Numbered from the stretch's first letter, positions 4,457 to 27,546 are shown. The stretch: DNA of 64,000 nucleotides from Patescibacteria group bacterium (GCA_049322215.1 JBMORU010000001.1:388023-452022); one strand, 5' to 3'. The notes: generated by a model not told the origin, from the letters alone. Made by a program: numbers and translations.

Positions 4457-4522
4457 TTATTTCAGCTACACTATTTTAGCACCCTGCTGTACATAATTTA
4501 TAACATATGAAAGAATTCACAT

Positions 4523-4936: not shown

Positions 4937-4969
4937 TATTAGTTTGTATACTAAACTCCCATCATTTTG

Positions 4970-5239
4970 TTATTTGCATTTGAAAAACCACATGTCGTGG
5001 GGCTTACCTACTGCGTCTTTGGGGGCTTTAGCCTGGCCATTTACGTGCTCGTGAAGAAATACATGTGGATGCGCATCTTTTCTTACTACTTCGATGTTTG
5101 GAGGAATTTGCCCGTAAAATACTCCCGATGCTTTGGCTAATGCTGTATTAAGCTTAGTTCCAGCATTAACTGCTTGGTCAACACGCAACCAAAACTTGCT
5201 GTTGTTTCCGTGAAAGACAACAATTTTTGAATTTACCAT
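4970..5239 (-). CDS. hypothetical small protein
   Basis: Strong SD (AAGGAGAG, 5-nt spacer) on the minus strand. G+C moderately elevated. No motif recognised. Confidence 0.5.
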   Translation of the reverse strand: MVNSKIVVFHGNNSKFWLRVDQAVNAGTKLNTALAKASGVFYGQIPPNIEVVRKDAHPHVFLHEHVNGQAKAPKDAVGKPHDMWFFKCK

Positions 5240-5298
5240 TTTTCTCTCCTTATATTCGTAGATAAATTATTAAAATGATACCCTATAAAATTGTATAG

Positions 5299-7926: not shown

Positions 7927-7974
7927 AGATCAGCTACTCAACTATTAGATGAACAGCTGATCCTTAACTAAAGG

Positions 7975-8334
7975 CTAAAAAGATTTAGGTTTTCGTTTTA
8001 GCTCAGTGATGAATGCCCTCAACAAAACATGCCAGCGCCATAATGTTAAGCTTTGAGTCAATTCTTCCTCAGCGTCAAAAAATTCTATGTACGCAGATTC
8101 TCTTAAAATATCTTTTGACACAATAGCTATGTCTATGAAAGCAACTGCTTTGTTAAAGTTTTCCCCTCTAAAAACCCTAACTGCTAATACGCTTTTTTGC
8201 TCATCTTTTGGTAGTAGCAATAGTGTTACTGTGTATATTTCATTTCCCGGCCAAAACTTTAAGTGCTGAAACCATTTTCGTTGTGTTTCTATCACTCTAG
8301 TTGTTATAACCTGTATTTCATTTGTTTCGTGCAT
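7975..8334 (-). CDS. hypothetical protein
   Basis: Strong SD AAGGAGAG 6 nt upstream of the ATG on the minus strand. No motif recognised. Confidence 0.5.
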   Translation of the reverse strand: MHETNEIQVITTRVIETQRKWFQHLKFWPGNEIYTVTLLLLPKDEQKSVLAVRVFRGENFNKAVAFIDIAIVSKDILRESAYIEFFDAEEELTQSLTLWRWHVLLRAFITELKRKPKSF

Positions 8335-8445
8335 ATATCTCTCCTTGTAGCGGTTTTGCTTTGCATTATAGGATAAATAACGAGGCTATCCAAACTTCAT
8401 CACTCAAACTAAGCATTGTGTTTGTATTTGTAATATAATTGGCTT

Positions 8446-10167
8446 ATGGAATTAGCGATTGTAGCTTTTTTGGCAGGTGTTTTAACTGTAGTAACACCTT
8501 GTGTGCTCCCAATATTGCCTATAATTTTAGGGGGTACATTAGCTGACTCTCAAGACAAAAAACGCCCATTTATAATTGTGGCCTCTTTAGGGTTATCTGT
8601 ACTGGCTTTTAGCTTATTGCTTAAGTCCTCTACCTTATTAATAAATATTGACCCCTCTTTTTGGAAGTACTTTTCTGGAGGAATAATTTTAATTTTTGGT
8701 ATTTTTACTCTCTTTCCTAATGTTTGGGAGAAAGTTTCTGAAAAAATAGGATTAGGGGGGTTGGGAAATCTTTTGCAACAGTCCCAAGCCAAAGGCGGAC
8801 GTTTAGGTCAGGTTTTAGTGGGTATTTCTCTTGGGCCGGTCTTTTCTAGTTGTAGTCCCACATATGCTGTTATTTTGGCTGTAGTTTTACCCCAAAATTT
8901 TTCGTCTGGTTTACTTAACCTTATTATTTATGTAGTGGGTTTATCTTTAGCCTTACTGACAATTGCTATTTTTGGACAAGGTGCAATTGCAAAGCTTAAA
9001 TGGGCGGCAAATCCCACAGGCTGGTTTAGAAAAGGTTTGGGCGTTTTGTTTGTAGTTGTTGGTGTGGCTATTATAACCGGTTATGAAAAAAAGTTAGAAA
9101 TAGCCTTATTAGATAACGGGTTGTATGATTTTACTCGATTTGACCAGAAGTTGATTGAGCAGGTAGATATGGGAGAAACGAAAAATAAGCCTGCAATATC
9201 CTCAACTGATAAACTTCATCTTGCTGTAGAAGAGCCTTATCCTGCTCCAGAAATTAGAAATATTGCTCACTGGATTAATTCCGATGGTGAAAGCTTGGCA
9301 CAATTAAAGGGAAAAGTAGTTTTAATAGATTTTTGGACTTACAGTTGTATAAATTGTATTCGTACCCTTCCCTATTTGAAGGCGTGGCATGAAAAGTATT
9401 CTGACGATGGGCTAGTAATAATAGGCTTGCATGCGCCTGAATTTGCTTTTGAGCAAAAAGTAGAAAATGTAGAGATGGCTGTAAAAGATTATGAAATCAC
9501 TTACCCTGTTGGGTTAGACAACGACTTTTCAACATGGCGCGCCTATGACAATAGGTACTGGCCCGCCAAATATTTTATAGATAAAAAAGGTAACTTAAGA
9601 CATTATCACTTTGGTGAAGGTGATTATAAAGAAAGTGAAGAAGTACTTCAGTTTTTGTTATCAGAAGATGGTAGTGCTGTGGATGATTCTATTTCTACCA
9701 ATACACAAGATACTCCTCCTACCATTTCAGGACAGTCTCCTGAAACATATTTAGGCTATGAGCGCGCCAAAAATTTTAAAAACGCTGTAAGATTCAAGAG
9801 AGATGTTCCTTTTACTTACGTTCTCAATGTGGACTTAAAGCCAAATGAATGGTCTTTTGAAGGTACATGGGAAGTAAAAAATGAAAAAAGTGTAGTTATT
9901 TCTGATTCAGCAACTCTTGTTTATAACTTTTCAGCTAAAGATGTTTATTTGGTAATGGGTTCTGAGACTTCTGGTGAGGTTAAAGTTGAGGTTTCGGGTT
10001 ATTCTAACGCCTATGGAGACTCTGTTTCTGATGAGGGTATAGTGCAGGTAAACATGTTTAAGTTGTATCATCTTGTGAGCTTGCCTTCCTTTGATAACAA
10101 TGTGACTATGACTCTCACATTTCCAAAAGGTGTAGAAGTACACGCATTCACTTTTGGGTCAAAATAG
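8446..10167 (+). CDS. thiol:disulfide interchange fusion protein: CcdA/DsbD-type membrane domain plus periplasmic thioredoxin-like (TlpA/ResA-like) domain plus C-terminal domain
   Basis: N-terminal TM domain with the paired Cys of CcdA (CVLPILP... and SCSP). Thioredoxin CxxC WTYSCINCIRTLP. Leaderless-type promoter: TATAAT at 8434-8439, 6 nt before the ATG. Confidence 0.7.
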   Translation: MELAIVAFLAGVLTVVTPCVLPILPIILGGTLADSQDKKRPFIIVASLGLSVLAFSLLLKSSTLLINIDPSFWKYFSGGIILIFGIFTLFPNVWEKVSEKIGLGGLGNLLQQSQAKGGRLGQVLVGISLGPVFSSCSPTYAVILAVVLPQNFSSGLLNLIIYVVGLSLALLTIAIFGQGAIAKLKWAANPTGWFRKGLGVLFVVVGVAIITGYEKKLEIALLDNGLYDFTRFDQKLIEQVDMGETKNKPAISSTDKLHLAVEEPYPAPEIRNIAHWINSDGESLAQLKGKVVLIDFWTYSCINCIRTLPYLKAWHEKYSDDGLVIIGLHAPEFAFEQKVENVEMAVKDYEITYPVGLDNDFSTWRAYDNRYWPAKYFIDKKGNLRHYHFGEGDYKESEEVLQFLLSEDGSAVDDSISTNTQDTPPTISGQSPETYLGYERAKNFKNAVRFKRDVPFTYVLNVDLKPNEWSFEGTWEVKNEKSVVISDSATLVYNFSAKDVYLVMGSETSGEVKVEVSGYSNAYGDSVSDEGIVQVNMFKLYHLVSLPSFDNNVTMTLTFPKGVEVHAFTFGSK

Positions 10168-13572: not shown

Positions 13573-16164
13573 ATGTCAGATTTTGAAACCCCAATGATGG
13601 TTCAGTATAAAGAAATAAAAGATGCCTATCCTGATTGTCTTTTATTTTTTAGACTAGGTGATTTTTACGAACTTTTTTTAGATGATGCTAAGGTAGGTGC
13701 AAACGTATTAGGTATAACTTTAACATCACGATCTCGAGGAAAAGACGGCCGAATTCCAATGGCGGGAGTTCCTTATCACGCAGTAAATTCCTACTTATCT
13801 AAATTAGTTAAAGCAGGCCACAAAGTTGCTATATGTGAACAAGTTGGTGACACTAAAGGACCTGATTTAGTTAAGCGAGAAGTTGTAAGAGTTGTAACAC
13901 CCGGTACTCTTATAGACCAAAACTCCCTGGATAAATCAAAAAATAATTATGTTGCTGCACTATGTATAGCAAATAACACAATGGGGCTATCTTTTGCAGA
14001 TGTGTCTACAGGACATTTTCACTCTTTTGAAGAAACTACAAATGAAATTCAAAATGTGTTGTTAGATCACTTTTCTAAATACACACCTGCAGAAATTTTG
14101 CTAAATGATGCTACATATAATGACTCTAAAACGCTAAAGTTACTTACTGAACTTGGTATAAGCATTTACAATTATGCGTCATGGTCAAACTATTCTTCTA
14201 AACCAGAAAAACATTTGTTAACCCATTTTAACCTAACAACTTTAGCCAGCTTTGGTATGGGTAACACTCCTTTAGCCACTGAAACTGCTTCAGTTTTGCT
14301 TGGCTATTTAAAGGAAACTCAAAAGGACAAAGTTTCACATATAAATAAAATAAATTTTTCACCTGCATCTGATTATGTTGAGTTAGGAAGATCTACAATT
14401 TTTAATTTGGAATTATTTTCTACAATAAGAGAAGGAGAAAAGTATGGTTCGCTAATTGGCGTTCTAGATGAAACTCTTACCCCTATGGGAGCGCGTTTGC
14501 TACGCAAGTGGATTGCGCGCCCTTTAACAAATATTTCTTCAATTTCTGCCCGCCAAAATTCTGTGTCTGAATTTTTAGAAAATAGGCAACTAAGAAATAA
14601 CTTACTGGGTGTTTTAAAAGAAATAAATGATATAGAAAGAATTCTTTCTAAAATATCAGTAGGCTTGGGAAATGCGCGTGATTTAGTAAACCTTAAAGAT
14701 TCTTTGATCGCTGTTTTAGAAGTTAAGCAAGTTTTGAATTTAGCAAAATCTTCTTTAAATATGAAACTTAAGGGTTCTATTGATTCAAACTTACAAAAAC
14801 TGGTAGATAAGATACATATCACTATTGTTGATGAACCCCCTATAGAACTTAAGCAAGGAAATCTTATAAAACCGGGTGTTTCTTCAAAGCTGGATGATTT
14901 AAAACGAGGAATAAAAACCAGTCAGGAGTGGATATCTTCTTTAGAAGAAAAAGAAAAGGAGCGAACAGGTATTTCAACCCTAAAAGTCGGTTATAACAAG
15001 ATTTTTGGGTATTACATTGAAATAAGTAAATCTAATTTACATCTTGTACCTGAAAGCTATGTGAGGAAGCAGACTTTAGTGAGTGCGGAGCGTTTTATTA
15101 CACAACGCTTAAAAGAAGAAGAAGAACAAGTTTTAGCTGCTGAAGATAAAATTAATGATTTAGAATATGAAATTTTTTCAAGTGTTGTTGATAATGTTTT
15201 GAATGCCTTACCAGCTATACAAGTAGCTGCAGAAGCAGTAGCCGAGCTAGACTGTCTTGTAAACTTTGCTGTTTTAGCAAAAAACTATAATTATTGTAAG
15301 CCTAATATTAGTACTTCAGGAAATATAAAAATTATAAATGGGCGTCACCCAGTAGTTGAAAGGCTTTTACGTGAGGTGCCTTTTGTTCCAAATGATGTTA
15401 ATTTAAACCATGAAGACCATCAGCTAATTCTTATTACTGGACCAAATATGGCAGGTAAGTCTGTATACATAAGGCAGGTGGGTTTAATAACTCTTATGGC
15501 ACAAATGGGCAGTTTTGTTCCTGCAGATTCTGCTGAAATTTCTGTAGTAGATAAAATTTTTGTTAGAAGTGGTGCAAGTGATTTTATTACATCAGGGTTA
15601 TCTACATTTATGGTCGAAATGGTTGAAACTGCACATATTTTAAATAATTCCACAAAAAACAGTTTAATTTTACTTGATGAAATTGGTAGAGGAACCACAA
15701 CTTATGACGGGGTAAGTATTGCTTGGGCAGTTGCTGAGTATTTAGTAAAAAATCAGCAACCCTTTGCGAAAACCATGTTTGCAACTCATTACCACGAACT
15801 TCAAGATCTCGCTAAGGAAAGTTCTTTAGTTAAAAATTATCAGGTGTTGGCAAAAGAAGAATCTGGAAAACCAATATTTTTGCATAAAGTAGCTCCGGGA
15901 GGTGCTTCTCATAGTTATGGTGTGGCGGTAGCACAGCTAGCGGGAATTCCTGACGTGGTTACCACACGTGCTTTAGAAATATTAAGTACTTTACAGGGTA
16001 AAAGCTTTGAAGATTGGTTGCATGAAGATAGCATTGCAACTGATAACGTTTCCAATGAACTGACCGCAAAATTATCCTCAATAGATGTAAATACACTTAC
16101 TCCAATTGAGGCTTTGTTAAAGCTAAAAGAACTTAAAGAAAAGTTGCAAGATCAGGCGGTTTAA
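13573..16164 (+). CDS. mutS: DNA mismatch repair protein MutS
   Basis: MutS N-terminal mismatch domain (PMMVQYKEIKDAYPDCLLFFRLGDFYELF). Walker A GPNMAGKS. Length 863 aa. Confidence 0.9.
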   Translation: MSDFETPMMVQYKEIKDAYPDCLLFFRLGDFYELFLDDAKVGANVLGITLTSRSRGKDGRIPMAGVPYHAVNSYLSKLVKAGHKVAICEQVGDTKGPDLVKREVVRVVTPGTLIDQNSLDKSKNNYVAALCIANNTMGLSFADVSTGHFHSFEETTNEIQNVLLDHFSKYTPAEILLNDATYNDSKTLKLLTELGISIYNYASWSNYSSKPEKHLLTHFNLTTLASFGMGNTPLATETASVLLGYLKETQKDKVSHINKINFSPASDYVELGRSTIFNLELFSTIREGEKYGSLIGVLDETLTPMGARLLRKWIARPLTNISSISARQNSVSEFLENRQLRNNLLGVLKEINDIERILSKISVGLGNARDLVNLKDSLIAVLEVKQVLNLAKSSLNMKLKGSIDSNLQKLVDKIHITIVDEPPIELKQGNLIKPGVSSKLDDLKRGIKTSQEWISSLEEKEKERTGISTLKVGYNKIFGYYIEISKSNLHLVPESYVRKQTLVSAERFITQRLKEEEEQVLAAEDKINDLEYEIFSSVVDNVLNALPAIQVAAEAVAELDCLVNFAVLAKNYNYCKPNISTSGNIKIINGRHPVVERLLREVPFVPNDVNLNHEDHQLILITGPNMAGKSVYIRQVGLITLMAQMGSFVPADSAEISVVDKIFVRSGASDFITSGLSTFMVEMVETAHILNNSTKNSLILLDEIGRGTTTYDGVSIAWAVAEYLVKNQQPFAKTMFATHYHELQDLAKESSLVKNYQVLAKEESGKPIFLHKVAPGGASHSYGVAVAQLAGIPDVVTTRALEILSTLQGKSFEDWLHEDSIATDNVSNELTAKLSSIDVNTLTPIEALLKLKELKEKLQDQAV

Positions 16165-16199: not shown

Positions 16200-17861
16200 A
16201 TGGGAAACATTAGAATTTTGCCCAAAAAGGTAGCTTCGAAAATAGCCGCTGGAGAAGTAATTCAACGCCCTGCTGACGTTGTTAAGGAATTGATAGAAAA
16301 TTCCTTAGATGCTGAAGCTTCTAATATACATTTAAAAATATCAGGAGCTGGTTTAGATATTATACAAGTAAGAGACAATGGTGTAGGAATGTCGGTTGAT
16401 GACTTGGAAAAATGTTTTTTGCCTCATGCTACTAGTAAAATCTTTCATGAAGATGATATTTATTCCATTTCTTCTATGGGGTTTCGAGGAGAAGCTTTAA
16501 GTAGTATTGCAGCTATTAGCCGTACAACAATTCAAAGCAAACCAAATTCTTCAACTGAAGGCAACTTGTTAGAACTAACCGGTGGAATGTTAGAGGGTAT
16601 TTCTCCGTGTGGTATGCCTAATGGTACTATTGTAACCGTAGAAAATTTGTTTTTTAATGTTCCCGTTAGAAAAAAGTTTTTAAAATCAACTCAAGTAGAG
16701 TTTGCCGAAATTCTATCTGTTGTAACTTCTTTGGCTTTATCTTTTCCTGAAGTGGGGTTTACGATTGAGAAAGATGAAAAAGTTGTATTATCGTTGCTAA
16801 AAAATTCAGCACTTGATGACAGAATTAGAGACATTTACGGAGAAGATTTATTTGCTCAATTATTGCCTGTAACTTACGAGGGTTCTCATGTAACACTGCA
16901 TGGTTACATATCAAGACCTCAAGTAACTACCACTAGCTCAAGCAAACAAAGCTTGATTATTAACAACAGAGTAGTTTCAGAAAAGGTTTTGCTTTCTGCA
17001 ATTAGAAACGCCTACGGAACTTTATTACAACCAAGAGTATACCCGGCGTTTTTACTGCATCTTAAGTTTCCTCCAGAGCTAGTTGATGTTAATGTTCATC
17101 CGCGTAAACAAGAAGTGAAGTTTATTAATCCAAAACTTGTCACCGAATCAGTCTCAAGTGCAATTAATAAAGCGTTGCAAGTAAATGACTTAACCTACAT
17201 TAAATCTGGTTTTAGTTTTACTAATGAATTTTTGCTAAAAGATGCCGATTACGTTGCAAATTTAAGAAAACATTCTTCTTCTATTGTCTTGGAAGAAATA
17301 ATACAGGTTCATAATCAGTACTTAATTTCAGAATCAGCTAGGGGCATATACTTAATTGATCAACACGCTGCCCACGAACGCATTATTTTTGAGCAATTGT
17401 TTGAAAAATTTAAGACTACTAACAAATCTGAAGCTATTAAGCTTGATTCCCCTCATATTTTTAACTTATCAAATGTAGAGGCTCTTTTATTAAAAGAACA
17501 CTTGTATGTTTTTGAGAGTATTGGTTTTCGCATTCAAGAATTTGGTTCAAATGCATTTAGAGTCACACAGGTTCCTGTTTTTTATCAAGATAGAAACATT
17601 ACAAGTATTTTGTCAGAAATGCTTGATGATTTAGTTAATGAAGGGTTTGTTTCAGATATAGATATTAAGTCTGAGAGAGCACTTTCATATTTGGCTTGCC
17701 GCAGTGCTATAAAAACGGGCGAAGTGCTAAACCTTGAAACCCGAAAAACCCTCTTAGAACAACTAGCAGAAACTAAAACAAAATATACATGTCCACACGG
17801 TAGACCAGTAAAAATCGAAATTTCTTTAAAAGACTTGGATAAATTATTCAAACGCACATAG
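16200..17861 (+). CDS. mutL: DNA mismatch repair protein MutL
   Basis: GHKL ATPase N-terminus (IAAGEVIQRPADVVKELIENSLDA). Length 553 aa. Confidence 0.9.
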   Translation: MGNIRILPKKVASKIAAGEVIQRPADVVKELIENSLDAEASNIHLKISGAGLDIIQVRDNGVGMSVDDLEKCFLPHATSKIFHEDDIYSISSMGFRGEALSSIAAISRTTIQSKPNSSTEGNLLELTGGMLEGISPCGMPNGTIVTVENLFFNVPVRKKFLKSTQVEFAEILSVVTSLALSFPEVGFTIEKDEKVVLSLLKNSALDDRIRDIYGEDLFAQLLPVTYEGSHVTLHGYISRPQVTTTSSSKQSLIINNRVVSEKVLLSAIRNAYGTLLQPRVYPAFLLHLKFPPELVDVNVHPRKQEVKFINPKLVTESVSSAINKALQVNDLTYIKSGFSFTNEFLLKDADYVANLRKHSSSIVLEEIIQVHNQYLISESARGIYLIDQHAAHERIIFEQLFEKFKTTNKSEAIKLDSPHIFNLSNVEALLLKEHLYVFESIGFRIQEFGSNAFRVTQVPVFYQDRNITSILSEMLDDLVNEGFVSDIDIKSERALSYLACRSAIKTGEVLNLETRKTLLEQLAETKTKYTCPHGRPVKIEISLKDLDKLFKRT

Positions 17862-17913: not shown

Positions 17914-18996
17914 ATGAAAAGTATAACCATAAAAAACAAAGCATATGATTTTCCCATATTTCTACCAGACGCAACTAGAGCGGTAACTAAGAGTATTGAT
18001 TCAAACGATATGGTGTTTGCCGAGGTAAGGGGTTGCGTGGTTAATACCTACCACTTAATGAGCGAACCCGGTGTTTCGGTTTTAAAACACTTTGGAGGAA
18101 TAAAAGGATTTATGAAGTTCGACGGGTTAGTTGTATCAGACTCTGGAGGTTGGCAGGTTTTTTCTTTAATTCATAGAAATAAAAAAGCGGGTACTATAAC
18201 AGACAAAGGTGTTACTTTTTCTTTAGGTGGGGCCAAGAAAAAACTTTTTACCCCGGAAAAATCAATCCAAGTGCAAATGGATATAGGTTCTGATATTGTA
18301 ATTTGTTTAGATGACTTCAGTCCCCCCGAAGGTGATGATATCGCTATTGAAGAAAGTGTTGTGCGAACTACTAAATGGGCAAAGCGTTGTAGAGAAGAAT
18401 TCGATCGTCAGTGTGAAGTGCGAAAGCTTGATGATTCTTCAAGACCTCACTTATTTGCCGTAGTTCAAGGAGCACGCAGTAAACCCATGCGAGACAAAAG
18501 TGCTACAGAATTGCGTGAAATTGGTTTTGACGGCTATGGTTTTGGAGGTTACCTAATTGACGAAGAAGGCAACTTAGATTTAGATATGATGGAATATCTT
18601 GCAAGTATTATTCCCAATGATTTACCTAAATTTGCATTAGGAACCGGTTCTCCACATGAAATTGCTATGTGCTATCAACTGGGTTGGGATATATTTGACT
18701 GTACTTTGCCTACGAGAGATGCTCGTCATCAAAGACTTTACGTTTTTACTGAAGAACCAAATTCCGTTGATGCCCTGCTTAAAGAAGAAACTTATGGCTA
18801 TGTACAAATAAAACGGGAAAAGTATAGACGCGATGAACGTCCTATAAGTGATTTTTGTGATTGCTATACCTGCAAAAACTATTCAAGAGCTTATCTTCAA
18901 CATTTATTTAGCATAAAAGATACTTCTGCTTTTAGATTAGCTACAATTCACAATTTATGGACTTATAACAAGCTAATAAGTTTACTATCAAAATGA
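17914..18996 (+). CDS. tgt: queuine/guanine tRNA-ribosyltransferase (Tgt family)
   Basis: FPIFLPDATRAVTK, NTYHL, GGWQVFSL, and the zinc motif CDCYTCKNYSRAYLQHL. Confidence 0.8.
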   Translation: MKSITIKNKAYDFPIFLPDATRAVTKSIDSNDMVFAEVRGCVVNTYHLMSEPGVSVLKHFGGIKGFMKFDGLVVSDSGGWQVFSLIHRNKKAGTITDKGVTFSLGGAKKKLFTPEKSIQVQMDIGSDIVICLDDFSPPEGDDIAIEESVVRTTKWAKRCREEFDRQCEVRKLDDSSRPHLFAVVQGARSKPMRDKSATELREIGFDGYGFGGYLIDEEGNLDLDMMEYLASIIPNDLPKFALGTGSPHEIAMCYQLGWDIFDCTLPTRDARHQRLYVFTEEPNSVDALLKEETYGYVQIKREKYRRDERPISDFCDCYTCKNYSRAYLQHLFSIKDTSAFRLATIHNLWTYNKLISLLSK

Positions 18997-19787
18997 GTTT
19001 AGAAAACGAGATTTTAAAAGCACAGCAGTCAAAAAAGTATTCTCACATTTCAGAAACAACCATTAAAAATATATTTGAAACTGAATTTCAAAATATAAAA
19101 AACGAAAAACGTGCGTTAGAAAGTGCAAAGAAAAAATTACACAGAGTGGTTGCCGAGTACTTAGGGGATCTTAATTATGATCAAGCTTTTTTAGAGTTGA
19201 AAACCGCTTATGAAACAAAAAAAGTGGAAGAAATCAAAAATGTGTGCATACAGCTTATGAACGCACATTTCACAACACGAGAGCGGTTACCTATTTTAGA
19301 AGATTTTTACAAAAAAATTTTCGAAACTACCGGAGAGGTTAATTCTATTTTAGACTTAGCCTGCGGAATTAATCCTCTTGCTTTGCCTTGGATGCCTCAG
19401 GTTAAACATTACCATGCTTACGATATAAATATACCTCGAGTTGATTTTATAAATAAGTTTTTAAACTTAAACGAACTGCCTGAAGATGCACAGGCTAAAG
19501 ATGTTTTAGCGAATATTCCATCTGAGCAAGGCGATGTGGCATTACTACTAAAAGAAATACACAGAATGTTTGAACGAAACAAGGCACTAACAATAAAGCT
19601 TTTAGAGGAAGTGCAAGTTAAATGGTTAGTAGTTTCTATACCTGTTTCTAATATGAGAAAAGAATGGGCAATGCCCAAAAAGTATGAAGCTGCCGTTTTA
19701 GCTGTAATTGAAGAGCACAAATGGCCTTATTTTGTTTTAGAATTTGATACAGAAAAGGTATTTTTGATTAATAAAGAAGTGTATTAA
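18993..19787 (+). CDS. 16S rRNA (guanine1405-N7)-methyltransferase homologue, FmrO/ArmA/Rmt family (aminoglycoside-resistance-type MTase)
   Basis: Blocks matching ArmA/Rmt as I recall them: QSKKYSHIS.., KKKLHRVVAEY, TTRERLPILEDFY, SAM motif ILDLACGINPLALPW, YHAYDIN. Length 264 aa. The ATG overlaps the tgt stop (ATGA). Confidence 0.7.
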   Translation: MSLENEILKAQQSKKYSHISETTIKNIFETEFQNIKNEKRALESAKKKLHRVVAEYLGDLNYDQAFLELKTAYETKKVEEIKNVCIQLMNAHFTTRERLPILEDFYKKIFETTGEVNSILDLACGINPLALPWMPQVKHYHAYDINIPRVDFINKFLNLNELPEDAQAKDVLANIPSEQGDVALLLKEIHRMFERNKALTIKLLEEVQVKWLVVSIPVSNMRKEWAMPKKYEAAVLAVIEEHKWPYFVLEFDTEKVFLINKEVY

Positions 19788-19869
19788 CAATGTCGTTAAC
19801 CTATAGTATAATTAGAGAGTATCACAATATAATTTAATCAGTTCACAATTCATAAGGAGTAGATAGATC

Positions 19870-20406
19870 ATGAATCAGCCAATGTATATGCGTATGGCCT
19901 ACATTTTGGACGAAAACGGCGATACCTGTGGGTTTGTTAAACATGCACACAGTAGCGCATCCATTTGCCGTTTGGATTTTTCCTGGGTAAACTCGATGAC
20001 GCAAGATTTGTACAAGGCTTTGGTTGCGGTATATGGAATCTACTATCATGACAATGAGGCTATGACTCAAGGTCATGTTGTAATCCCGCTTTTTGATGGG
20101 GAGATCCGCAACAAAAAAGGCTTTGTTATTTCCCAGGCAAATGCGATTCGACGTCGTTTAGAAGCATCTGCAATGGATGAAGTGGTTCGTCGTGCTATGA
20201 CTGCATTATGCTTTACAGAGGACAGAACTGCTGTTTTGACCTCTATCGGACGTTTGTTGCAGACTTTGCACAAAAACCCTGCAGCTTTCGCCCAGGCCAT
20301 AGAAGAAGTTGACAGTACTGTACCTGAAGATTTTGCCCTGCTCGTCGGCGCCCTTTCGTACCCTGATATGGCACATGTTGTTGGAGCAAAAATTACCTCC
20401 ATTTAG
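19870..20406 (+). CDS. hypothetical protein, G+C-anomalous
   Basis: AAGGAG SD with TATAGTATAAT upstream. Coding region visibly G+C-richer (GCC/CTG/CGT codons) than the flanks. No motif recognised. Confidence 0.5.
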   Translation: MNQPMYMRMAYILDENGDTCGFVKHAHSSASICRLDFSWVNSMTQDLYKALVAVYGIYYHDNEAMTQGHVVIPLFDGEIRNKKGFVISQANAIRRRLEASAMDEVVRRAMTALCFTEDRTAVLTSIGRLLQTLHKNPAAFAQAIEEVDSTVPEDFALLVGALSYPDMAHVVGAKITSI

Positions 20407-20417
20407 TGCTCAATTGG

Positions 20418-20471
20418 TCCTTGATACTTGTTTGTCTAAAAAACTTTACAAGTATCTTGGGCCTTTTTTTT
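20418..20471 (+). terminator. rho-independent terminator between convergent genes (stem GATACTTGT / ACAAGTATC, then T9)
   Basis: Seen directly. Confidence 0.55.
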
Positions 20472-20473
20472 TC

Positions 20474-21406
20474 CTATAAATTCTCGAGTATTGTTTTGGC
20501 TTGTTTCTTGCGGTTTGTTAGTATTCCGTCAGGATCTGGTGTATTTATAACCGCACTGGCGTAAACTTCTGCAAGCAAGGGTTTGTTGCTTTTTGCATAA
20601 ACTGCTGCAAAGCCTAGCATTACTCCGCTATTCCAGACTCTAAGTTTTAAATTACCTTGATCTTTATTGCTCATTTCTTCTTCGTAACCAGCAAATAAAG
20701 CTTGTTGTGCTTCTTGCAACGTCTTTAATGCTTTTTCGTATTCCTTAAGCAAAATCAAAGATTTAGCTTTGTTTCCTAATGGCCATGCTTTATGCGCCTT
20801 TGATCCTGGGAAATTTTTTAACGCGTCATCAAAAAGTTTAATAGATTCTTTAAGTTTGTTTTGTTCTTCAGTACCTTTAAATAGCAGTGCCTCGTCAGCA
20901 ATTAAACTTCCCAAATGCACTTTTTGTATTGCTAACGTTCCTGGCTTTATACTTTTGTCTTTTTTACCTAGTTCAAGAGCTTCTTGTGTAGCTTCCTGTG
21001 CTTGATTCATGTGTTCTTTCTTTTTTTGTGCATTGTTAGTTTTTTCTGCCATAGAAACTAGTGTAATTTTTATATGTCCTAAGACATCCATTACATCTTT
21101 TGTTTCGTTTTTAGCTTTTTCCCATTTGTATACTTGTTCAAACATTTCTAGTGCTAATGAGTGCTTTCCTGACTCACGCAATTCAACTGCGGCTTTTTTA
21201 TACTCATCTTTAGCTTTTTTCCCTGACTTTAGGTCTAGTGTTTTGTTTAAACCTTTATTCTTTAAATCGTTAATAATATAACGAGCTCTCTGTGGCGAAA
21301 TGTTATATTTCAAAGCTAGCTTATTAAAAGAAATATCGGTATTGATGTATTCTTCATACATTTTTTTATTTCTTTCTACTTTATAGTCACTTCTAAAGTT
21401 TTCCAT
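20474..21406 (-). CDS. HTH domain plus TPR-like repeat protein, hypothetical regulator
   Basis: N-terminal HTH (ISFNKLALKYNISPQRARYIINDLK). Helical repeat remainder. Confidence 0.45.
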   Translation of the reverse strand: MENFRSDYKVERNKKMYEEYINTDISFNKLALKYNISPQRARYIINDLKNKGLNKTLDLKSGKKAKDEYKKAAVELRESGKHSLALEMFEQVYKWEKAKNETKDVMDVLGHIKITLVSMAEKTNNAQKKKEHMNQAQEATQEALELGKKDKSIKPGTLAIQKVHLGSLIADEALLFKGTEEQNKLKESIKLFDDALKNFPGSKAHKAWPLGNKAKSLILLKEYEKALKTLQEAQQALFAGYEEEMSNKDQGNLKLRVWNSGVMLGFAAVYAKSNKPLLAEVYASAVINTPDPDGILTNRKKQAKTILENL

Positions 21407-21497
21407 GGTTATTCCTATAAATTAATAGATGTCAGCAGTTTATGTTAATACTTATTAGCTGTCAACTACAGATAATTTATTTGCTTACTGCTAACCT

Positions 21498-21526
21498 TTG
21501 ACAATTTTTTACTGTAACCGTAGACT
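21498..21526 (+). promoter_or_regulatory. sigma70-like promoter TTGACA-17-TAGACT with the -10 ending 7 nt before the ATG (leaderless-type)
   Basis: TTGACAattttttactgtaaccgTAGACTaaaatcaATG. Confidence 0.45.
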
Positions 21527-21533
21527 AAAATCA

Positions 21534-23696
21534 ATGTTGCCTGCTGCCTCTGAGAATTTGAATAAACTTTTCAGCCCAAAGTCTATTGCTGTAATAGGTG
21601 CTTCTCGTAACAAAAGGAAACTTGGCTATATAACAGTAAGAAATATAATTGATGCGGGCTTTGAAGGTACCGTTTATCCTGTAAATCCTAAGGCGGATAA
21701 AATCTTAAATTTGCCATGCTATAAATCTGTTAAAGATTTACCTGAAATTCCTGATCTGGCAGTAATTTCTCTTCCAGCTGAGTTAGTTTTAGAAACTCTT
21801 AAAGAGCTCAATGAAAAAAAAGCTAAAAATGTGGTTGTTTATTCTGCCGGTTTCAAAGAAGTAGGTAGTGATGGAAGCAAGCTAGAAAAAGAGGTTATTA
21901 GGTTTGCAAAAAATAATTCCATAAACTTACTAGGCCCCAATTGTTTAGGTTTTGCAAATACTATAGATAAGATCAACGTTACATTTGGTAAAGTAGTTAA
22001 AACTCCGGGAAACTTAAAACTAATTTCTCAATCTGGTGCAATTGCTGCAAGCTTGTTTGACTGGTTTGAGCATGCTGGTATTGGCTTTAGTGATTTTGTA
22101 ACCTTAGGAAACAAGGCAACCATAAATGAAAATACAATTTTAAGTTACTGGTTAGATTATAAGCATGTGGACAAACATCTTGATAATTCGGTAATTTTTT
22201 CAAAATATCAGCCTATTGGCTTATATTTAGAGTCTATAGTTGATGGTCAAAAATTTTTAGATCTAGCTAGTCAAATAACTCCATATAATCCCATGTTTAT
22301 TTTAAAGCCTGGAAAATCTGCGTCAGCAAAAAAAGCTATGCAATCTCACACAGGGGCAATTGCGGGCGAAGATACTGTTTTAAATGTGGCTCTAGAGCAT
22401 GCAGGTATTATTCGTTGTTTTGGTATGGAGGACATGTTTGATTTAGCGCGCTCTTTCGCCTGGATGGAAGCACCTTCAGGATCAAACGTTGCTATAGTTT
22501 CTAATGCAGGAGGTCCTGCAGTAATAAGTGCAGATTTGGTTTCAGAGGCGGGACTAAATTTAATTCAATTAAGTGAAGAAACTAAAAAAACGTTAGAAAC
22601 GCACTTGCCCCGCGCAGCAAGTTTGCTTAATCCTGTAGATGTTTTAGGGGATGCCCTGGCCGATAGGTACAAGTATGCCCTGGAGGCGGTGTTAAGTGAA
22701 AATGATGTTAATGCTGTAATTGTACTACTCACACCACAGATTATGACTGAAATACAGGAAACTGCGGAGGTAATTGGGGACTTAGCAGGAAAATACCAAA
22801 AACCCATATTATGTGCTTTTATTGGTGGAACTGATGTACAAAAGGGAATAGAGGTGCTGAATACGTTTAGAATTCCTTCTTTTCATTTTCCTGAGCGCGC
22901 TGTACGTACCTTAGCCAAAATGTGGTGGTGGCAAAATTGGACAAACACGCATGCTGAAGACGTGGGAAGTTTTATAAAACCCCAGCCAAATGAGTATGTG
23001 TCAAAAGCTACAGAAAGTGTTTTAACAAAGGCGATTGAAAGAAACAGAAAAGTATTAAATAGCTTTGAGGCAAATGACATTTTAAATATTGTTGATATAA
23101 ACACTCCCCCTACGCGCGAAGTGAAAACTTTAGAAGACGCTAAGGATTTTGTAAGTGCTGAAGGGTATCCTGTTGTTTTAAAGCTATCGTCCCCCTTAAT
23201 TTTGCATAAAAAAGACATAGGTGGAGTAATAACTAACATAAATGATGAAAATGCTTTGGTAGAAAATTTTAGTGCAATAAATTCTACTTTAAATTCTTTA
23301 GCTAAAGAGTTTAAGCAAAACACGAGAGTACAAATTCAAAAACAAGTAGCTGCGGGTATAGAAGTAATTGCAGGAATTAAAAAAGATTCTAGCTTTGGCC
23401 ATGTTTTAATGTTTGGTGCTGGAGGTACTCTTGCCGAACTAATTGAAGATAGAAACTTATGCTTAATTCCGGTTTCAAATGTTGCTGCTCAACGTTTAGT
23501 AGCGCAGTCTAAAATTGGAAAAATGTTAGAAGGTTATAGAGGTGATAAACCATACAATTTAGAGGGGCTTTATTCACTTTTAGAAAAATTATCTAACTTA
23601 GCTGTGTCTGTTCCTGATTTGCAGGAATTTGAAATTAATCCCATTATTATTACTCATGAAAACATTTGGGCTGTAGATGGAAAGGGTGTTCTTTGA
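21534..23696 (+). CDS. acetyl-CoA synthetase (ADP-forming), fused alpha/beta (NDP-forming acyl-CoA synthetase)
   Basis: CoA-binding N-terminus SIAVIGASRNKRKLGYIT, a succinyl-CoA-synthetase-like domain, and a C-terminal ATP-grasp domain. The ORF track starts at TTG 21498. ATG 21534 is preferred. Confidence 0.75.
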   Translation: MLPAASENLNKLFSPKSIAVIGASRNKRKLGYITVRNIIDAGFEGTVYPVNPKADKILNLPCYKSVKDLPEIPDLAVISLPAELVLETLKELNEKKAKNVVVYSAGFKEVGSDGSKLEKEVIRFAKNNSINLLGPNCLGFANTIDKINVTFGKVVKTPGNLKLISQSGAIAASLFDWFEHAGIGFSDFVTLGNKATINENTILSYWLDYKHVDKHLDNSVIFSKYQPIGLYLESIVDGQKFLDLASQITPYNPMFILKPGKSASAKKAMQSHTGAIAGEDTVLNVALEHAGIIRCFGMEDMFDLARSFAWMEAPSGSNVAIVSNAGGPAVISADLVSEAGLNLIQLSEETKKTLETHLPRAASLLNPVDVLGDALADRYKYALEAVLSENDVNAVIVLLTPQIMTEIQETAEVIGDLAGKYQKPILCAFIGGTDVQKGIEVLNTFRIPSFHFPERAVRTLAKMWWWQNWTNTHAEDVGSFIKPQPNEYVSKATESVLTKAIERNRKVLNSFEANDILNIVDINTPPTREVKTLEDAKDFVSAEGYPVVLKLSSPLILHKKDIGGVITNINDENALVENFSAINSTLNSLAKEFKQNTRVQIQKQVAAGIEVIAGIKKDSSFGHVLMFGAGGTLAELIEDRNLCLIPVSNVAAQRLVAQSKIGKMLEGYRGDKPYNLEGLYSLLEKLSNLAVSVPDLQEFEINPIIITHENIWAVDGKGVL

Positions 23697-24910
23697 ACAC
23701 AAAGAAAGTAATCATTGTAGGTGGTGGCTTTGGCGGAATTAAGTGTGCTTTAGATTTATCTTCTAAACATTTGTCTAATACTAAAATAATATTAATAAGC
23801 GACAAAAGCCACTTTGAATATCATGCCGCACTATATAGAGTAGTCGCAGGAAGTTCTCCATTAGAAGTTTGTATTCCCCTAAACGACATATTTAAGGGTA
23901 AAAATGTAGAAGTTATTACAGATAAAGTTTTGAGCATAGATTTAGAAAAAAATACTATGTGTGGCCAATCGGATTGCACATATTCTTATGATTATTTAGT
24001 TTTAGCTTTAGGTAGCGAGACTGCTTATTTTGATATCCCAGGACTGCAAGAAAACTCATTTGGAATGAAATCTATTAATGAAGCGCTACGTTTGAATAAG
24101 CATTTACATAATGTGTTTTCAGAATGCGCTTTAAATATAGAAACGGGAGACACTGAGTGTGCGACACACATTGTAGTTGTAGGTGGGGGCGCTACAGGCA
24201 CCGAGTTAGCGGCAGAACTTGCTATTTACACAAGAGAATTAGCTCAAAAGCATGGTTTAGACCCAAGATTAGTTACTATTGATTTAATTGAACTATCTTC
24301 TCATTTGGTGTCTTTATTGCCTGAAGACGCTTCGTTAAAAATTGAAGAACGTATGAGGTCGCTAGGGGTAAATATATTTCTTAACCGCGGTGTAGTAAAA
24401 GAAGAAGTAGAAAAAGTTTATTTAAAAGATATTGAAATGCGTTCTAAAACGGTTATATGGACAGCCGGAACCCGTGCTAACCGATTGTACAAGGATGTTG
24501 GTTTAGAGGTAAATAAAAAGGGGCAGGTTTCTGTAACAAATCATTTACAAGCTGTAGGGCATAATAATGTATTTGTTATTGGAGACGGCGCTGCTACAAA
24601 TTACTCTGGTATGGCACAAACAGCCTTGTTTGATGGCGAATACGTTGCTGATGTCATATATGCGTTGTTTCAGCAAAAAGAGCCAAAAGAGTATTCTGCG
24701 CCCCCTCCGTTTTATTCTATACCCGTAGGTCGTGACTGGGCAGCTTATGTAAACGGCAGTAAACGTTATTACGGTAAAGTTGGTTGGTGGTTACGTAGGT
24801 GGGTGGATTTTCATGTATTTAGCACTATTCTTCCATTTGAAAAGGCTGTAGTAGCATTTCAAGATGGTAGAACAATTAGTGAAACGTGTGATATATGCAG
24901 TAAAAACTAA
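23693..24910 (+). CDS. FAD/NAD(P)-binding oxidoreductase, type II NADH dehydrogenase-like
   Basis: Two Rossmann GxGxxG motifs (VIIVGGGFGG and VVVGGGATGTELAAE). TTG start overlapping the upstream stop, preceded by AAAGGG. The ORF track starts at 23666. Confidence 0.6.
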   Translation: MNTKKVIIVGGGFGGIKCALDLSSKHLSNTKIILISDKSHFEYHAALYRVVAGSSPLEVCIPLNDIFKGKNVEVITDKVLSIDLEKNTMCGQSDCTYSYDYLVLALGSETAYFDIPGLQENSFGMKSINEALRLNKHLHNVFSECALNIETGDTECATHIVVVGGGATGTELAAELAIYTRELAQKHGLDPRLVTIDLIELSSHLVSLLPEDASLKIEERMRSLGVNIFLNRGVVKEEVEKVYLKDIEMRSKTVIWTAGTRANRLYKDVGLEVNKKGQVSVTNHLQAVGHNNVFVIGDGAATNYSGMAQTALFDGEYVADVIYALFQQKEPKEYSAPPPFYSIPVGRDWAAYVNGSKRYYGKVGWWLRRWVDFHVFSTILPFEKAVVAFQDGRTISETCDICSKN

Positions 24911-24964
24911 GTGTTTTGGTTGTCATTACTTTTTTTTGTTTAATATTTCCTTTACAATAAATTA

Positions 24965-26683
24965 ATGTTAACTGCCTCAAAAAACCCCTTTACAATAAAA
25001 ATAGGAGGCGAAGCCGGTTTTGGTGTTATGTCTGCCGGATTGGTTATTTCGAAAGTTGCAACACGTTCTGGATATTATACTTTTGACTATACAGAATACC
25101 CGTCTTTAATTCGTGGTGGTCATAATGTTATGCAGGTTTCTATATCTGCCGAGCCTGTATCCTCTCAGTTTTACTCTACCGAATTTTTAATAGCCTTAAA
25201 TCAAGAAACAATAAATTTACATAAACATGAACTTCACGAAAGTTCTATAGTTTTGTATGATCCTGAAAATAAAATCGAATGCAGTGATTTACCAGACTCT
25301 GTAATTAAAGTAGAGGTTCCTTTACTACAGATTGTGCGTGATGTAGAAGGAACTTTTGTTATGCGCAACACTATTGCAGTAGGAGCAGCTCTTGCCTTAC
25401 TAGGCGGTAACAAACAACATTTACTTGATTTAGTAGAAGAGCAATTTGGGCATAAAAACGAAGCTATTCTTCAAAAAAACCTATTAGCCTGCGAAAAAGC
25501 ATTTAAATACATTGAGACTAATTATGCAGACAAAATTCATGAGATCTTAAAGCAAAAAAGCAAAGTAACTAAGCAAATTGTAGTTACAGGCAATGAAGCA
25601 ATAGGCTTAGGAGCTATTGCAGGTGGAATGACCTTTGCTGCAATTTATCCTATGACACCAACTTCTAATATTTTACATACAATTGCGCCTTACCAAGAAA
25701 AGTACGGCTATATTTATAAACAGCCTGAAGATGAATTATCTGCAGTAAATATGGCAATAGGTGCGAGTTTGGGAGGTGCACGCGCCATGGTTGCTACCTC
25801 TGGGGGCGGTTTTTGTTTAATGGCCGAAGGATATGGCTTAGCGGGCTTAACCGAGACTCCTTTAGTAATTATTGAGGGTATGCGTGGGGCACCTGCAACA
25901 GGGCTTCCAACTTGGACTGAGCAAGGAGACCTTAGATTTGTTTTGCATGCCCATCAAGGGGATTTCCCTAGAATAGTTTTAGCTGCTGGGGATGTGGAAG
26001 AATGTTTTAATTTATCTATGCAAGCCTTTAATTTAGCAGACAGGTATCAAACTCCGGTTGTTCTTTTAGTAGATAAACATGTTTTAGAAAGCCATCAAAG
26101 TGTTGAACCTTTTGACAGTTCGCATTTTGAAGTTGATCGCGGGCGCTTTACTACTAAGGAAGAAAACGATTATGCGCGTTATCGAGACGCTGAAGATGGT
26201 ATTTCTTTAAGAACAGTGCCAGGGGTGGGGAATCATTTTGTTGCAAATTCCGATGAACATGATCAGTTTGGTTATTCTAATGAAGAAATTGACAATAGAA
26301 ACACTCAAATGAGAAAGCGCATGAAAAAGCTTGAAACCTGTGCTCAAAAAGATATGAAACCCCCCACTTTGTTTGGTCCTGAAGACGCTGAAGTAACCAT
26401 AGTATCTTGGGGAAGTAACAAAGGTGCAATATTAGAAGCATTAAAGTATCTGCCTAATACTAACTTTTTGCATATAACATGGCTAAATCCTTTTCCTACT
26501 GAGGAAATAAAACAAGTTTTGCTAAATGCAAAATATTTAATCAATATAGAATGTAACTATTCAGCTCAATTAAGAGGGTTAATTGCAGAAAAAACTGGTG
26601 TGACCATTTTAGACATTTTTCTAAAATATGACGGTAGACCTTTTTATCCGCATGAAATTATAGAAAAGGTTAAAAGTATATGA
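24965..26683 (+). CDS. 2-oxoacid:ferredoxin oxidoreductase, fused gamma-alpha subunit
   Basis: Gamma-like N-terminus (IKIGGEAGFGVMSAG), alpha core VVTGNEAIGLGAIAGGMTFAAIYPMTPTS. Leaderless-type -10 TACAAT 6 nt before the ATG. Confidence 0.75.
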   Translation: MLTASKNPFTIKIGGEAGFGVMSAGLVISKVATRSGYYTFDYTEYPSLIRGGHNVMQVSISAEPVSSQFYSTEFLIALNQETINLHKHELHESSIVLYDPENKIECSDLPDSVIKVEVPLLQIVRDVEGTFVMRNTIAVGAALALLGGNKQHLLDLVEEQFGHKNEAILQKNLLACEKAFKYIETNYADKIHEILKQKSKVTKQIVVTGNEAIGLGAIAGGMTFAAIYPMTPTSNILHTIAPYQEKYGYIYKQPEDELSAVNMAIGASLGGARAMVATSGGGFCLMAEGYGLAGLTETPLVIIEGMRGAPATGLPTWTEQGDLRFVLHAHQGDFPRIVLAAGDVEECFNLSMQAFNLADRYQTPVVLLVDKHVLESHQSVEPFDSSHFEVDRGRFTTKEENDYARYRDAEDGISLRTVPGVGNHFVANSDEHDQFGYSNEEIDNRNTQMRKRMKKLETCAQKDMKPPTLFGPEDAEVTIVSWGSNKGAILEALKYLPNTNFLHITWLNPFPTEEIKQVLLNAKYLINIECNYSAQLRGLIAEKTGVTILDIFLKYDGRPFYPHEIIEKVKSI

Positions 26684-27546
26684 ATAACGAGGAAAATAAA
26701 AAAAACTTAAAAACACCTAACAAGCCTAATTGGTGCCCGGGATGTGGCGATTTAGCTATTTGGACCGCTTTTAAAAATGCTGCAGCTGAAAAAGACTGGA
26801 ATAACCACAACACTGCCTTTGTAGCAGGTGTTGGATGCCATGGGCATATGGTTAATTTTGTACGTTTAACCGCTTTAGAAGGTTTACATGGTCGTGCTTT
26901 ACCTGTTGCAAGTGGACTGAAAATGGCAAATTCTGATTTAAATGTTTTTGTTTTTTCAGGTGATGGTGACGGTTTGGCCGAAGGGGGAAATCATTTTTTA
27001 CACACCGCACGTAGAAATCATGACTTAACTATGCTTTTACATGATAATGCCGTATATGGTTTAACAACCGGACAAACTTCTCCAAGGTCACCAAAAGGCT
27101 ATATTTCAAAGTCTACACCTGATGGCTCTTTTGAAGAGCCTTTGCACCCTTTAACTTTAGCTATTGCCGTTGGGGCTAGTTTTGTTGCACGTGCTTATTC
27201 GGGGGATATAGAATATTTAACCAAGCTAATCATTGAAGCAAATGAGCATAAAGGATTTGCTTTAATTGATATTCTTCAACCTTGTGTAACCTTTAACAAA
27301 ATGTATTCTCATATTTTTTATCAAAGAAACACCTACTATTTAGATGAAAATTACGATTTTACAAATAAAATGGCAGCTTTAGAAAAATCTATGGAATGGG
27401 AAGAAAACAGAATTCCCTTAGGAGTGTTTTACAAAGTAGATGCGCCATCTTACGAGTCACAAATTCCACAAATTAAAGATACTGCTTTAGTAAAGCAGAA
27501 TATGAGTAAAAGAGATATTTCGGAATTGCTTGAAAAGTTAAGTTAG
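26680..27546 (+). CDS. 2-oxoacid:ferredoxin oxidoreductase beta subunit (TPP-binding)
   Basis: CPGCGD and the GDGDG...N TPP motif. Start overlaps the upstream stop (ATGA). Confidence 0.75.
   Translation: MNNEENKKNLKTPNKPNWCPGCGDLAIWTAFKNAAAEKDWNNHNTAFVAGVGCHGHMVNFVRLTALEGLHGRALPVASGLKMANSDLNVFVFSGDGDGLAEGGNHFLHTARRNHDLTMLLHDNAVYGLTTGQTSPRSPKGYISKSTPDGSFEEPLHPLTLAIAVGASFVARAYSGDIEYLTKLIIEANEHKGFALIDILQPCVTFNKMYSHIFYQRNTYYLDENYDFTNKMAALEKSMEWEENRIPLGVFYKVDAPSYESQIPQIKDTALVKQNMSKRDISELLEKLS

Follow-up and report, generated by a model that had tools for sequence, protein, structure and literature searches.

The DNA analyzed here, a stretch of 64,000 nt (the window; GC 35% throughout) from a metagenome-assembled genome of a Patescibacteria host, carries at 18993-19787 a gene, fmrO, whose product is a genuine full-length member of the FmrO/Kgm-Arm-Rmt family. 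Sequence comparisons make it reasonably probable that this product is an active class-I S-adenosylmethionine (SAM)-dependent methyltransferase of a B-type subfamily, that it acts on guanine N7 in the 30S subunit at G1405 or a neighboring base, and that its gene is coupled to the upstream tgt gene and was probably acquired as an accessory gene. The B-type subfamily is defined in the present analysis, from Chloroflexota operons of the order tgt-A-B in which A and B are tandem fmrO paralogs. The original prediction had described an ArmA/Rmt-type m7G1405 methyltransferase gene, conserved within its operon and possibly related to the progenitor of armA and rmt genes. The gene run and the landmarks of the protein are:

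13573-16164, + strand: mutS, an 863-aa open reading frame (ORF), first gene of the run; Pfam MutS_I-V domains found on the identical gene in locus L001; NCBI name MutS
16200-17861, + strand: mutL, a 553-aa ORF starting 35 nt past mutS; Pfam HATPase_c_3, DNA_mis_repair and MutL_C
17914-18996, + strand: tgt, 360 codons, starting 52 nt past mutL; Pfam TGT, 5.7e-91
18993-18996, + strand: ATGA overlap of the fmrO start and the tgt stop, read from the sequence
18993-19787, + strand: fmrO, B-type FmrO-family SAM-dependent methyltransferase, an intact 264-aa ORF with an ATG start; PF07091
19347-19376, + strand: SAM-binding motif I, ILDLACGINP, residues 119-128, by alignment to RmtC
19551-19580, + strand: catalytic Lys and B-type beta4/beta5 loop, KEIHRMFERN, residues 187-196, by alignment to RmtC
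19647-19673, + strand: equivalent of RmtC Loop237-246, SNMRKEWAM, residues 219-227, by alignment to RmtC

The predicted ORF is intact, and the predicted junction can be read directly: the fmrO ATG (18993-18995) lies on the tgt TGA (18994-18996), a 4-nt overlap within ...atcaaaATGAgt..., downstream of mutS and mutL and on the same strand as both. Native codon usage, also claimed, was borne out. The third-position GC content (GC3) of fmrO is 0.27 versus 0.22-0.26 for its neighbors, and its relative synonymous codon usage distance ranks 40 of 54, so that it is no outlier. The gene would end a mutS-mutL-tgt transcription unit and would be translated by termination-reinitiation at the tgt stop.

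Family, fold and subfamily of the fmrO product

The protein matches the Pfam FmrO hidden Markov model (PF07091) over its full length, with 127.3 bits (E 8.9e-37) against a cutoff of 27 and residues 13-255 aligned to positions 2-251 of 255. Among PDB sequences the best match was Sgm (3e-25), then RmtC (2e-22), followed by RmtB, RmtF and ArmA. An AlphaFold2 model, built from an input of 31 homologs, has a mean predicted local distance difference test score (pLDDT) of 92.6 and a predicted template modeling (TM) score, pTM, of 0.88; in it a helical N-terminal domain (N1/N2, residues ~1-113) is followed by a class-I Rossmann domain (~114-264). The top 16 Foldseek hits in the PDB were exclusively Sgm, RmtC, RmtB, RmtF or ArmA. 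The TM score was 0.85 to Sgm (3LCU/3LCV), which has the same N1/N2 plus Rossmann layout, and 0.75-0.81 to RmtC (6PQB; 30S complex 8GHU), RmtB and RmtF; the ArmA chain is partial and gave a TMq of 0.57. The predicted two-domain homology is thus upheld by Pfam, PDB sequence matches and structure alike, and family and fold are directly supported.

All five motifs that had been named as an ArmA/Rmt series are present and align with the genuine ArmA sequence, taken from plasmid pNDM-1_Dok01. In order, SKKYSHIS (13-20), KKKLHRVVAEY (46-56), ERLPILEDFY (97-106), ILDLACGINPLAL (119-131) and YHAYDI (140-145) correspond to SKKYENLD, KKKLHQIWGSY, ERVATLNDFY, ILDFGCGFNPLAL and YHAYDI of ArmA. Overall identity is low: 24-28% to ArmA, RmtB, RmtC and RmtF, 29% to RmtG over a shorter match, and 26% to Sgm. 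Unlike the acquired Rmt and ArmA genes, the window gene is chromosomal, native in composition and off mobile elements; unlike that of Sgm, its host is no producer.

Homologs are numerous and distant. A word-indexed protein search found 994, the conspecific copy at 93-94% identity and the next at ≤45%, and a HMMER scan of 1.84 billion cluster representatives retrieved 1,356 clusters (50% identity; E ≤ 0.001), of which the next best was 41% identical. The nearest non-conspecific homolog is therefore ~41-45% identical. A scan of genomes, one genome per species, gave more than 546 loci. The view that such a gene is unusual in a non-producer lineage was overstated, since homologs occur in these more than 546 species, most of them Chloroflexota. 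Gene orders were read in the best 80 loci, which come almost all from Chloroflexota (Anaerolineae, Ardenticatenia and Herpetosiphonaceae):

tgt, then A, then B: 43 of 80 loci
B, then tgt, then A: 3 of 80 loci
tgt present in any arrangement: 50 of 80 loci
A then B, with tgt out of reach (some at contig ends): 6 of 80 loci
B alone within ±6 kb: 23 of 80 loci

In these 80 loci A directly follows tgt wherever both occur. The tandem pair, a canonical-looking A and a divergent B, is found in the set L003-L082 (e.g., L004 4030-6789 and L028 1105-3832), often with overlapping start and stop codons; in the cultured Ornatilinea apprima (L028) the tgt/A and A/B overlaps are 4 nt each, as in the window. 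Genes for RsmI-, RsmE- and RsmB-like 16S methyltransferases flank the Chloroflexota operons.

Three lines of sequence evidence identify the window protein as the B-type ortholog. In BLASTP it scores 221 and 203 bits with B paralogs versus 152 and 151 with A paralogs. In neighbor-joining (NJ) trees with bootstrap, the method used throughout, it groups with B in 93 of 100 replicates. At ten columns that discriminate A from B it is B-like in six, E188 and R191 among them, and A-like in two. It is 37-44% identical to the Chloroflexota B proteins and has their signature K-E-x-[HP]-R after the catalytic Lys (KE.HR), their short loop and ATGA-type overlaps. It differs from the Chloroflexota operons in host phylum, in GC content (35% in the window versus 46-68%) and in order: B directly follows tgt, and the 64-kb window has no A-type FmrO and no second TGT. 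Among the loci read, this direct tgt-B order was found solely in the window species.

The environmental A+B clade is split from Sgm, RmtB/F/G and ArmA/RmtC in 87 of 100 replicates, although deep branching order is weakly resolved because the trees are NJ only. The window protein thus lies outside both Sgm and the acquired-enzyme groups. Kinship with the armA/rmt progenitor was too strong a claim in view of the 24-28% identity, the separate clade, the B-type grouping and the score with NF000466, the NCBIfam equivalog model for the "Rmt family 16S rRNA (guanine(1405)-N(7))-methyltransferase". Here the window protein reached 166.6 bits, with a curated cutoff of 250. Scores were 217-230 for Chloroflexota A proteins, 168-211 for B proteins and 247 for the single-copy protein of L091; neither Chloroflexota paralog attains the cutoff. 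With each Rmt-specific NCBIfam model the window protein scored 52-77 bits versus cutoffs of 500-550. The subthreshold NF000466 score explains the label "hypothetical protein" (MFZ5424580.1) given by the NCBI annotation pipeline (PGAP). By its sequence, the window gene is not a direct ancestor of the clinical armA and rmt genes. A tree from 2019 (10.1101/712810) already includes Chloroflexi homologs, and 16S methyltransferase-like genes of the candidate phyla radiation (CPR) have been loosely surveyed (PMC8651080; 10.64898/2026.07.13.738296). In the literature we found no description of the A/B paralog split, of the B signature or of the coupling of such a B-type gene to a tgt native to Patescibacteria.

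Functional residues and the presumed target base

RmtC, studied by mutagenesis and by cryo-EM of the 30S-RmtC complex (10.1101/712810; PMC10054953), served as the reference for functional residues. The docking and positioning residues are kept: RmtC K20, Y21, R50, H54 and Y60 correspond to K15, Y16, K46, H50 and Y56 in the window protein. So are the SAM ligands, with R111, D134, D160 and D188 corresponding to R98, D121, D144 and D170. K204 corresponds to K187 and M245 to M227; R211 corresponds to R195 in the phmmer alignment, and the MAFFT alignment is shifted by one residue. Motif I residues D121, C124, N127 and P128 equal RmtC D134, C137, N140 and P141 and are invariant or at least 92% conserved in the A and B clades. 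K15, Y16, K46, H50, Y56 and K187 are invariant or nearly so across the B clade. The SAM-binding Arg and Asp, the catalytic Lys and the N1 His and Tyr are common to Sgm as well. In RmtC, the universally conserved K204 touches N7 of G1405 (PMC10054953).

From these residues the window protein looks catalytically competent and 30S-directed. The helical N-terminal domain would dock on the assembled 30S subunit at 16S rRNA helices h44, h45, h24 and h27 through Lys15-Tyr16, Lys46, His50 and Tyr56; the Rossmann domain would bind SAM through Arg98, Asp121, Asp144 and Asp170; and Lys187 would position N7 of a flipped guanine atop helix 44, by default G1405.

The elements that flip the base are another matter. 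In RmtC the beta4/beta5 motif, Loop237-246 and His54 form a "pincer" that distorts h44 and flips G1405 (10.1101/712810; PMC10054953). Both loops are rebuilt in B-type proteins, and this is the first of several points that weigh against the favored reading. The beta4/beta5 loop, canonically LK.LP.LE/D.Q in Sgm, the Rmt enzymes and the A paralogs, is LKEIHRMFERN in the window protein. All B proteins carry E188 and R191 of this loop (100%), whereas A proteins and every characterized enzyme lack them. The stretch that answers to Loop237-246 is shorter by one residue and carries Ser219 at the K236 position. Of the canonical set K/R236, G/S239, R241 and M245 and the adjoining Y249, the window loop keeps only M227 (M245) and Y231 (Y249), R222 and K223 being near but unaligned. 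The Q212 equivalent is not conserved, being Asn196 or Arg195 according to the alignment used, and the T207 position is changed too. In the structural model pLDDT drops to 69 at residues 221-230. The loops of Sgm read LKTLPCLETQ and TFPTKSLGQRSKGMFQNY, and those of the window protein LKEIHRMFERN and SIPVSNMRKEWAMPKKY; A paralogs, like Sgm, keep LKTLPCLEQ and SFPxRSLGGRxKGMxxNY. To these points are added the score below the NF000466 cutoff and the coexistence of B in Chloroflexota with the more canonical A. A CPR "grm-like" gene, which need not be the window gene, left aminoglycoside minimal inhibitory concentrations (MICs) unchanged in E. coli (10.64898/2026.07.13.738296). Finally, the window holds no rRNA gene and only two tRNA genes, so the host's h44 is not readable there.

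Because the two h44-distorting loops are rebuilt in B, we infer the substrate and the target base, G1405 or a neighbor; with such loops the target could shift to a base in the neighborhood of G1405. Of the original claim of an m7G1405 enzyme, then, the family membership stands, while the G1405 specificity does not follow, given the co-occurring A type and the two rebuilt loops.

Two other accounts of the enzyme bear on this point. One is a canonical m7G1405 enzyme of aminoglycoside resistance or self-protection, like Sgm, ArmA and Rmt, kept owing to 4,6-deoxystreptamine aminoglycosides in the habitat or from a host. The intact N1 docking residues, SAM site, catalytic Lys and Met245 equivalent speak for it, as does the full-length fold like those of Sgm and RmtC. 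The window protein also retains the ancestral Met227 and Tyr231, with Leu258, where B proteins usually have Leu, a variable residue and Cys, respectively; most Chloroflexota B proteins have Leu in place of Met227. Moreover, aminoglycoside phosphotransferase (APH)-family kinase genes adjoin fmrO in loci L098 and L127. On the other side stand the B-type differences in the very elements that flip G1405, the presence of a canonical A type in Chloroflexota, the mutated start and relaxed constraint in a sister strain, and the absence of fmrO from related Patescibacteria (the last two are described below). It has also been argued that fermentative CPR bacteria are poor at aminoglycoside uptake, and with the CPR grm-like gene MICs stayed as they were (10.64898/2026.07.13.738296). 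On balance we consider a canonical resistance enzyme unlikely, although worth keeping in mind.

The other account is a neofunctionalized paralog: B would dock on the 30S subunit and methylate some other nucleotide close to the top of h44/h45, or work at another assembly stage, making an undescribed rRNA modification. Tandem A and B genes occur in at least 50 Chloroflexota-type species, which suggests non-redundant roles; stable coexistence in one operon across a phylum likewise speaks against B merely repeating the work of A. The A loops are canonical, whereas B has KE.HR.E.R and a shorter loop, and the Rmt model scores B below A (168-211 versus 217-230). However, neither the Lys that contacts N7 nor the docking residues are altered, from which a similar geometry of the active site relative to h44 is expected; known homologs tolerate Leu at the Met245 position (PMC10054953); and the window's B has no A nearby in the 64 kb. 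Neofunctionalization is a tentative possibility that the sequences make somewhat attractive, short of our preference for a B-type enzyme acting at G1405 or its neighbor. For that preferred enzyme we infer a transfer direction and a physiological role: the role would be ribosome tuning, and probably not primarily drug resistance.

Linkage to tgt and origin of the gene

The window TGT scores 301.2 with TIGR00430 (bacterial tRNA-guanine(34) transglycosylase Tgt; equivalog cutoff 306.75), and TGTs of the same subtype next to fmrO genes score 293-337 bits, around that cutoff. The window TGT keeps the catalytic motifs DSGG and FDC as well as the zinc site CxCxxC..H (as CDCxxC..H). The subtype is marked by FLPDAT, by GGW/Y (GGYLI in the window for GGL(A)V) and by an insertion of ~15 aa relative to E. 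coli Tgt; judged by these marks it is the TGT normally found in Patescibacteria and Chloroflexota. Orthologs 55-75% identical to the window TGT occur in Patescibacteria (WWE3, Moranbacteria, Nomurabacteria and others), and the window tgt is, on this comparison, native to the Patescibacteria lineage. A DpdA-like or defense role for the TGT was considered and rejected, as PADLOC gave no hit. A PADLOC search of TGT, FmrO and the products of two downstream genes (orf178 and the TPR gene, below) found nothing save two chance-level FmrO matches. A mosaic tgt made by recombination inside the gene was rejected as well: by sliding identity the protein is Patescibacteria-like throughout (0.67 versus 0.48 in the last 40 residues).

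For FmrO, unlike TGT, identity falls from 94% in the conspecific copy straight to 41-45%. The closest loci keep the flanking genes and lack fmrO. L092 (TGT 75% identical) keeps tgt followed by genes for ADP-forming acetyl-CoA synthetase (ACS), Pyr_redox and 2-oxoacid:ferredoxin oxidoreductase; L094 (TGT 70%) keeps DUF2207, mutS-mutL and tgt; in L095 (TGT 68%) tgt is followed by an opposite-strand glycosyltransferase gene. Among 65 metagenome loci in total, fmrO was downstream of tgt in none of the 45 Patescibacteria-type tgt loci with room for it, and upstream in one of 48 (L127, ArmA-like). Thus the idea of a conserved, operon-embedded gene holds for the linkage to tgt and for other phyla, mainly Chloroflexota, but not for the gene's own lineage, where synteny is conserved without it. 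From this pattern fmrO is a lineage-specific accessory gene.

Judging from these comparisons, fmrO was most likely gained horizontally and long ago, the donor being a Chloroflexota-like organism with a tgt-fmrO_A-fmrO_B operon. Since the composition of fmrO is not outlying, we rejected the idea that a high-GC donor passed it on recently; A/B operons also occur at low GC (L089, L096 and L098, 34-38% GC). Some observations fit an old gain poorly. The window TGT is outside the Chloroflexota TGT clade in the NJ tree. The window FmrO is basal to B and not nested within it, with monophyly of Chloroflexota B to the exclusion of the window protein at 38 of 100. An exact ATGA junction with a native tgt is hard to square with random insertion.

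The basal positions of FmrO and TGT keep alive vertical descent with many losses, in which a tgt-fmrO pair of the common ancestor of Patescibacteria and Chloroflexota survived in this lineage alone and was lost elsewhere by genome reduction. Both TGT (41-45%) and FmrO (37-44%) fall outside or basal to the Chloroflexota clades, the ATGA position 3' of a native tgt is an ancestral-looking arrangement, and the composition of fmrO is fully host-like. Such a history, however, needs many independent losses, even in synteny-keeping relatives with TGTs of 68-75% identity, and no second Patescibacteria-type tgt-fmrO order turned up among the 45 loci. The window-Chloroflexota distance is 1.16 for B versus 1.02 for TGT, which is little for B given that B evolves ~1.7x faster within Chloroflexota, and the A/B duplication would have to predate the split of both phyla. 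We therefore hold a vertical relic to be rather improbable and an old acquisition the better account.

Comparison with a sister strain (L002 1482-2276; ERR15087771) bears on the present state of the gene. There the fmrO start is CTG in place of ATG (a CTGA junction), and P132L changes a Pro that is invariant in the 31-sequence homolog alignment; the ORF is uninterrupted. The two strains differ by 15 nonsynonymous changes in the 264 codons of fmrO and by 3 in the 360 codons of tgt. The nonsynonymous divergence (dN) of fmrO is 0.024, compared with 0.001-0.012 for neighboring genes (2- to 18-fold), and its ratio to synonymous divergence (dN/dS) is 0.22, where mutL and tgt have 0.05-0.06. This weaker purifying selection fits an accessory gene, and in the sister strain gene loss is possibly beginning. 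A decaying or functionless passenger gene would also account for the CTG start, P132L, the raised dN and the absence from relatives. Yet the window ORF is intact with every catalytic and SAM-binding residue present, a dN/dS of 0.22 still denotes purifying selection, and the sister-strain ORF too is uninterrupted; a mere passenger is very improbable. The relaxed constraint itself, like the absence from relatives, is a direct observation.

A tgt directly upstream of rmtG has already been published (PMC3904158; PMC9311965), and rmtG is mobilized on plasmids by ISCR2 and IS91 elements (PMC9311965). In pEc09 (L088, NZ_MH325468.1) rmtG and its upstream, overlapping tgt are duplicated at 3879-5757 and 7891-9769, with an overlap of 8 nt compared with 4 nt in the window; rmtD reportedly has the same arrangement. 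FFPDAT, GGWP and the insertion place the pEc09 Tgt in the same subtype; its identity is 47-48% with the TGTs of the Chloroflexota operons and 41% with that of the window. The units differ in two ways: RmtG is canonical-type, of the RmtB/F/G clade, and the window protein B-type, and the tgt of the window belongs natively to Patescibacteria. The pEc09 Tgt is 51.6% identical to the TGT of L098, a metagenome contig of 34% GC, a match that hints at the type of organism from which the rmtG unit may have been mobilized.

Other pairings were seen in metagenomes. In L127 (410-3236) and L098 (2138-5816), two unrelated low- to mid-GC contigs, an APH-family gene adjoins fmrO/tgt; the L127 fmrO, which is ArmA-like, immediately precedes a TGT gene whose product is 51% identical to the window's, the reverse of the window order. 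Nine loci in the set L165-L175 (GC 65-75%) have a TGT with DSGGWQ and FDCTLPTR beside an A-like FmrO gene, which is downstream of the TGT gene in eight and upstream in L174. By sequence, the tgt-fmrO pairing reaches at least one further high-GC lineage.

The orders tgt-A-B, B-tgt-A, fmrO-tgt (L127), tgt-B (window) and tgt-rmtG (plasmids) thus all place the two genes together. That the linkage recurs in at least four gene orders, in one of which the tgt is native while the fmrO was probably imported, suggests selection for expressing the two together. A conservative reading is that tgt and fmrO would form a shared "translation-machinery modification" operon. A bolder one, which we offer as speculation and think quite unlikely, is that the juxtaposition reflects functional coupling of queuosine-type tRNA modification with N7-guanine methylation of the decoding center, that B installs an undescribed 16S modification other than m7G1405, and that this Patescibacterium re-created the coupling after acquisition.

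Downstream genes and wider meaning

Downstream, the variable slot from tgt to the ACS gene is occupied by fmrO, orf178 and a tetratricopeptide repeat (TPR) gene (18993-21406):

19784-19812, + strand: sigma-70-like site by the fmrO stop, upstream of orf178; 11/12, the best in the region, by consensus match alone
19870-20406, + strand: orf178, unknown protein, a compositional outlier
20416-20463: convergent hairpin downstream of orf178
20474-21406, - strand: TPR-repeat protein, 310 aa, with sub-threshold TPR hits
21498-27546, + strand: ADP-forming acetyl-CoA synthetase, Pyr_redox_2 and two 2-oxoacid:ferredoxin oxidoreductase subunits, syntenic with L092

The sigma-70-like site past the fmrO stop suggests separate transcription of orf178. 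This gene has a GC content of 45% and a GC3 of 43%, versus ~35% and ~25% for the rest of the window, and its codon usage is the most deviant (rank 54 of 54); it gave no Pfam, PHROGs or PADLOC hit and has no homolog in 176 other loci. On composition it is probably a separate, more recent foreign acquisition. The TPR gene is absent from L092, L094 and L095, where other small ORFs lie between tgt and the ACS gene. It is bracketed in the window by a 15-nt direct repeat (D8; 20468-20482 and 21409-21423, 14 of 15 identical, TT[T/A]TTCCTATAAATT), and a 14-nt repeat pair (D11) lies at the start and end of tgt. A phage or mobile-element origin of the fmrO-orf178-TPR segment was unsupported: there were no meaningful PHROGs hits, and the D8 and D11 repeats are at the estimated chance level. 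The block at 21498-27546 fits the fermentative metabolism of Patescibacteria.

Methyltransferases that make m7G1405 defeat nearly all aminoglycosides in clinical use, and we know of no environmental source for the acquired rmt and armA genes. The 1,356 clusters found here make up a large environmental FmrO reservoir organized as tgt-linked operons and, together with the same tgt subtype on the rmtG unit, narrow the search for the progenitor. Should B-type enzymes make m7G1405, they would be a resistance-capable lineage missed by curated antimicrobial resistance models (166-211 versus 250 bits); should they modify another base, they would be a new rRNA modification enzyme. The reduced Patescibacteria genome, with its coupling to a native tgt and the possible decay in the sister strain, would offer a natural case of gain and loss in which to gauge the worth of the modification to a minimal ribosome.

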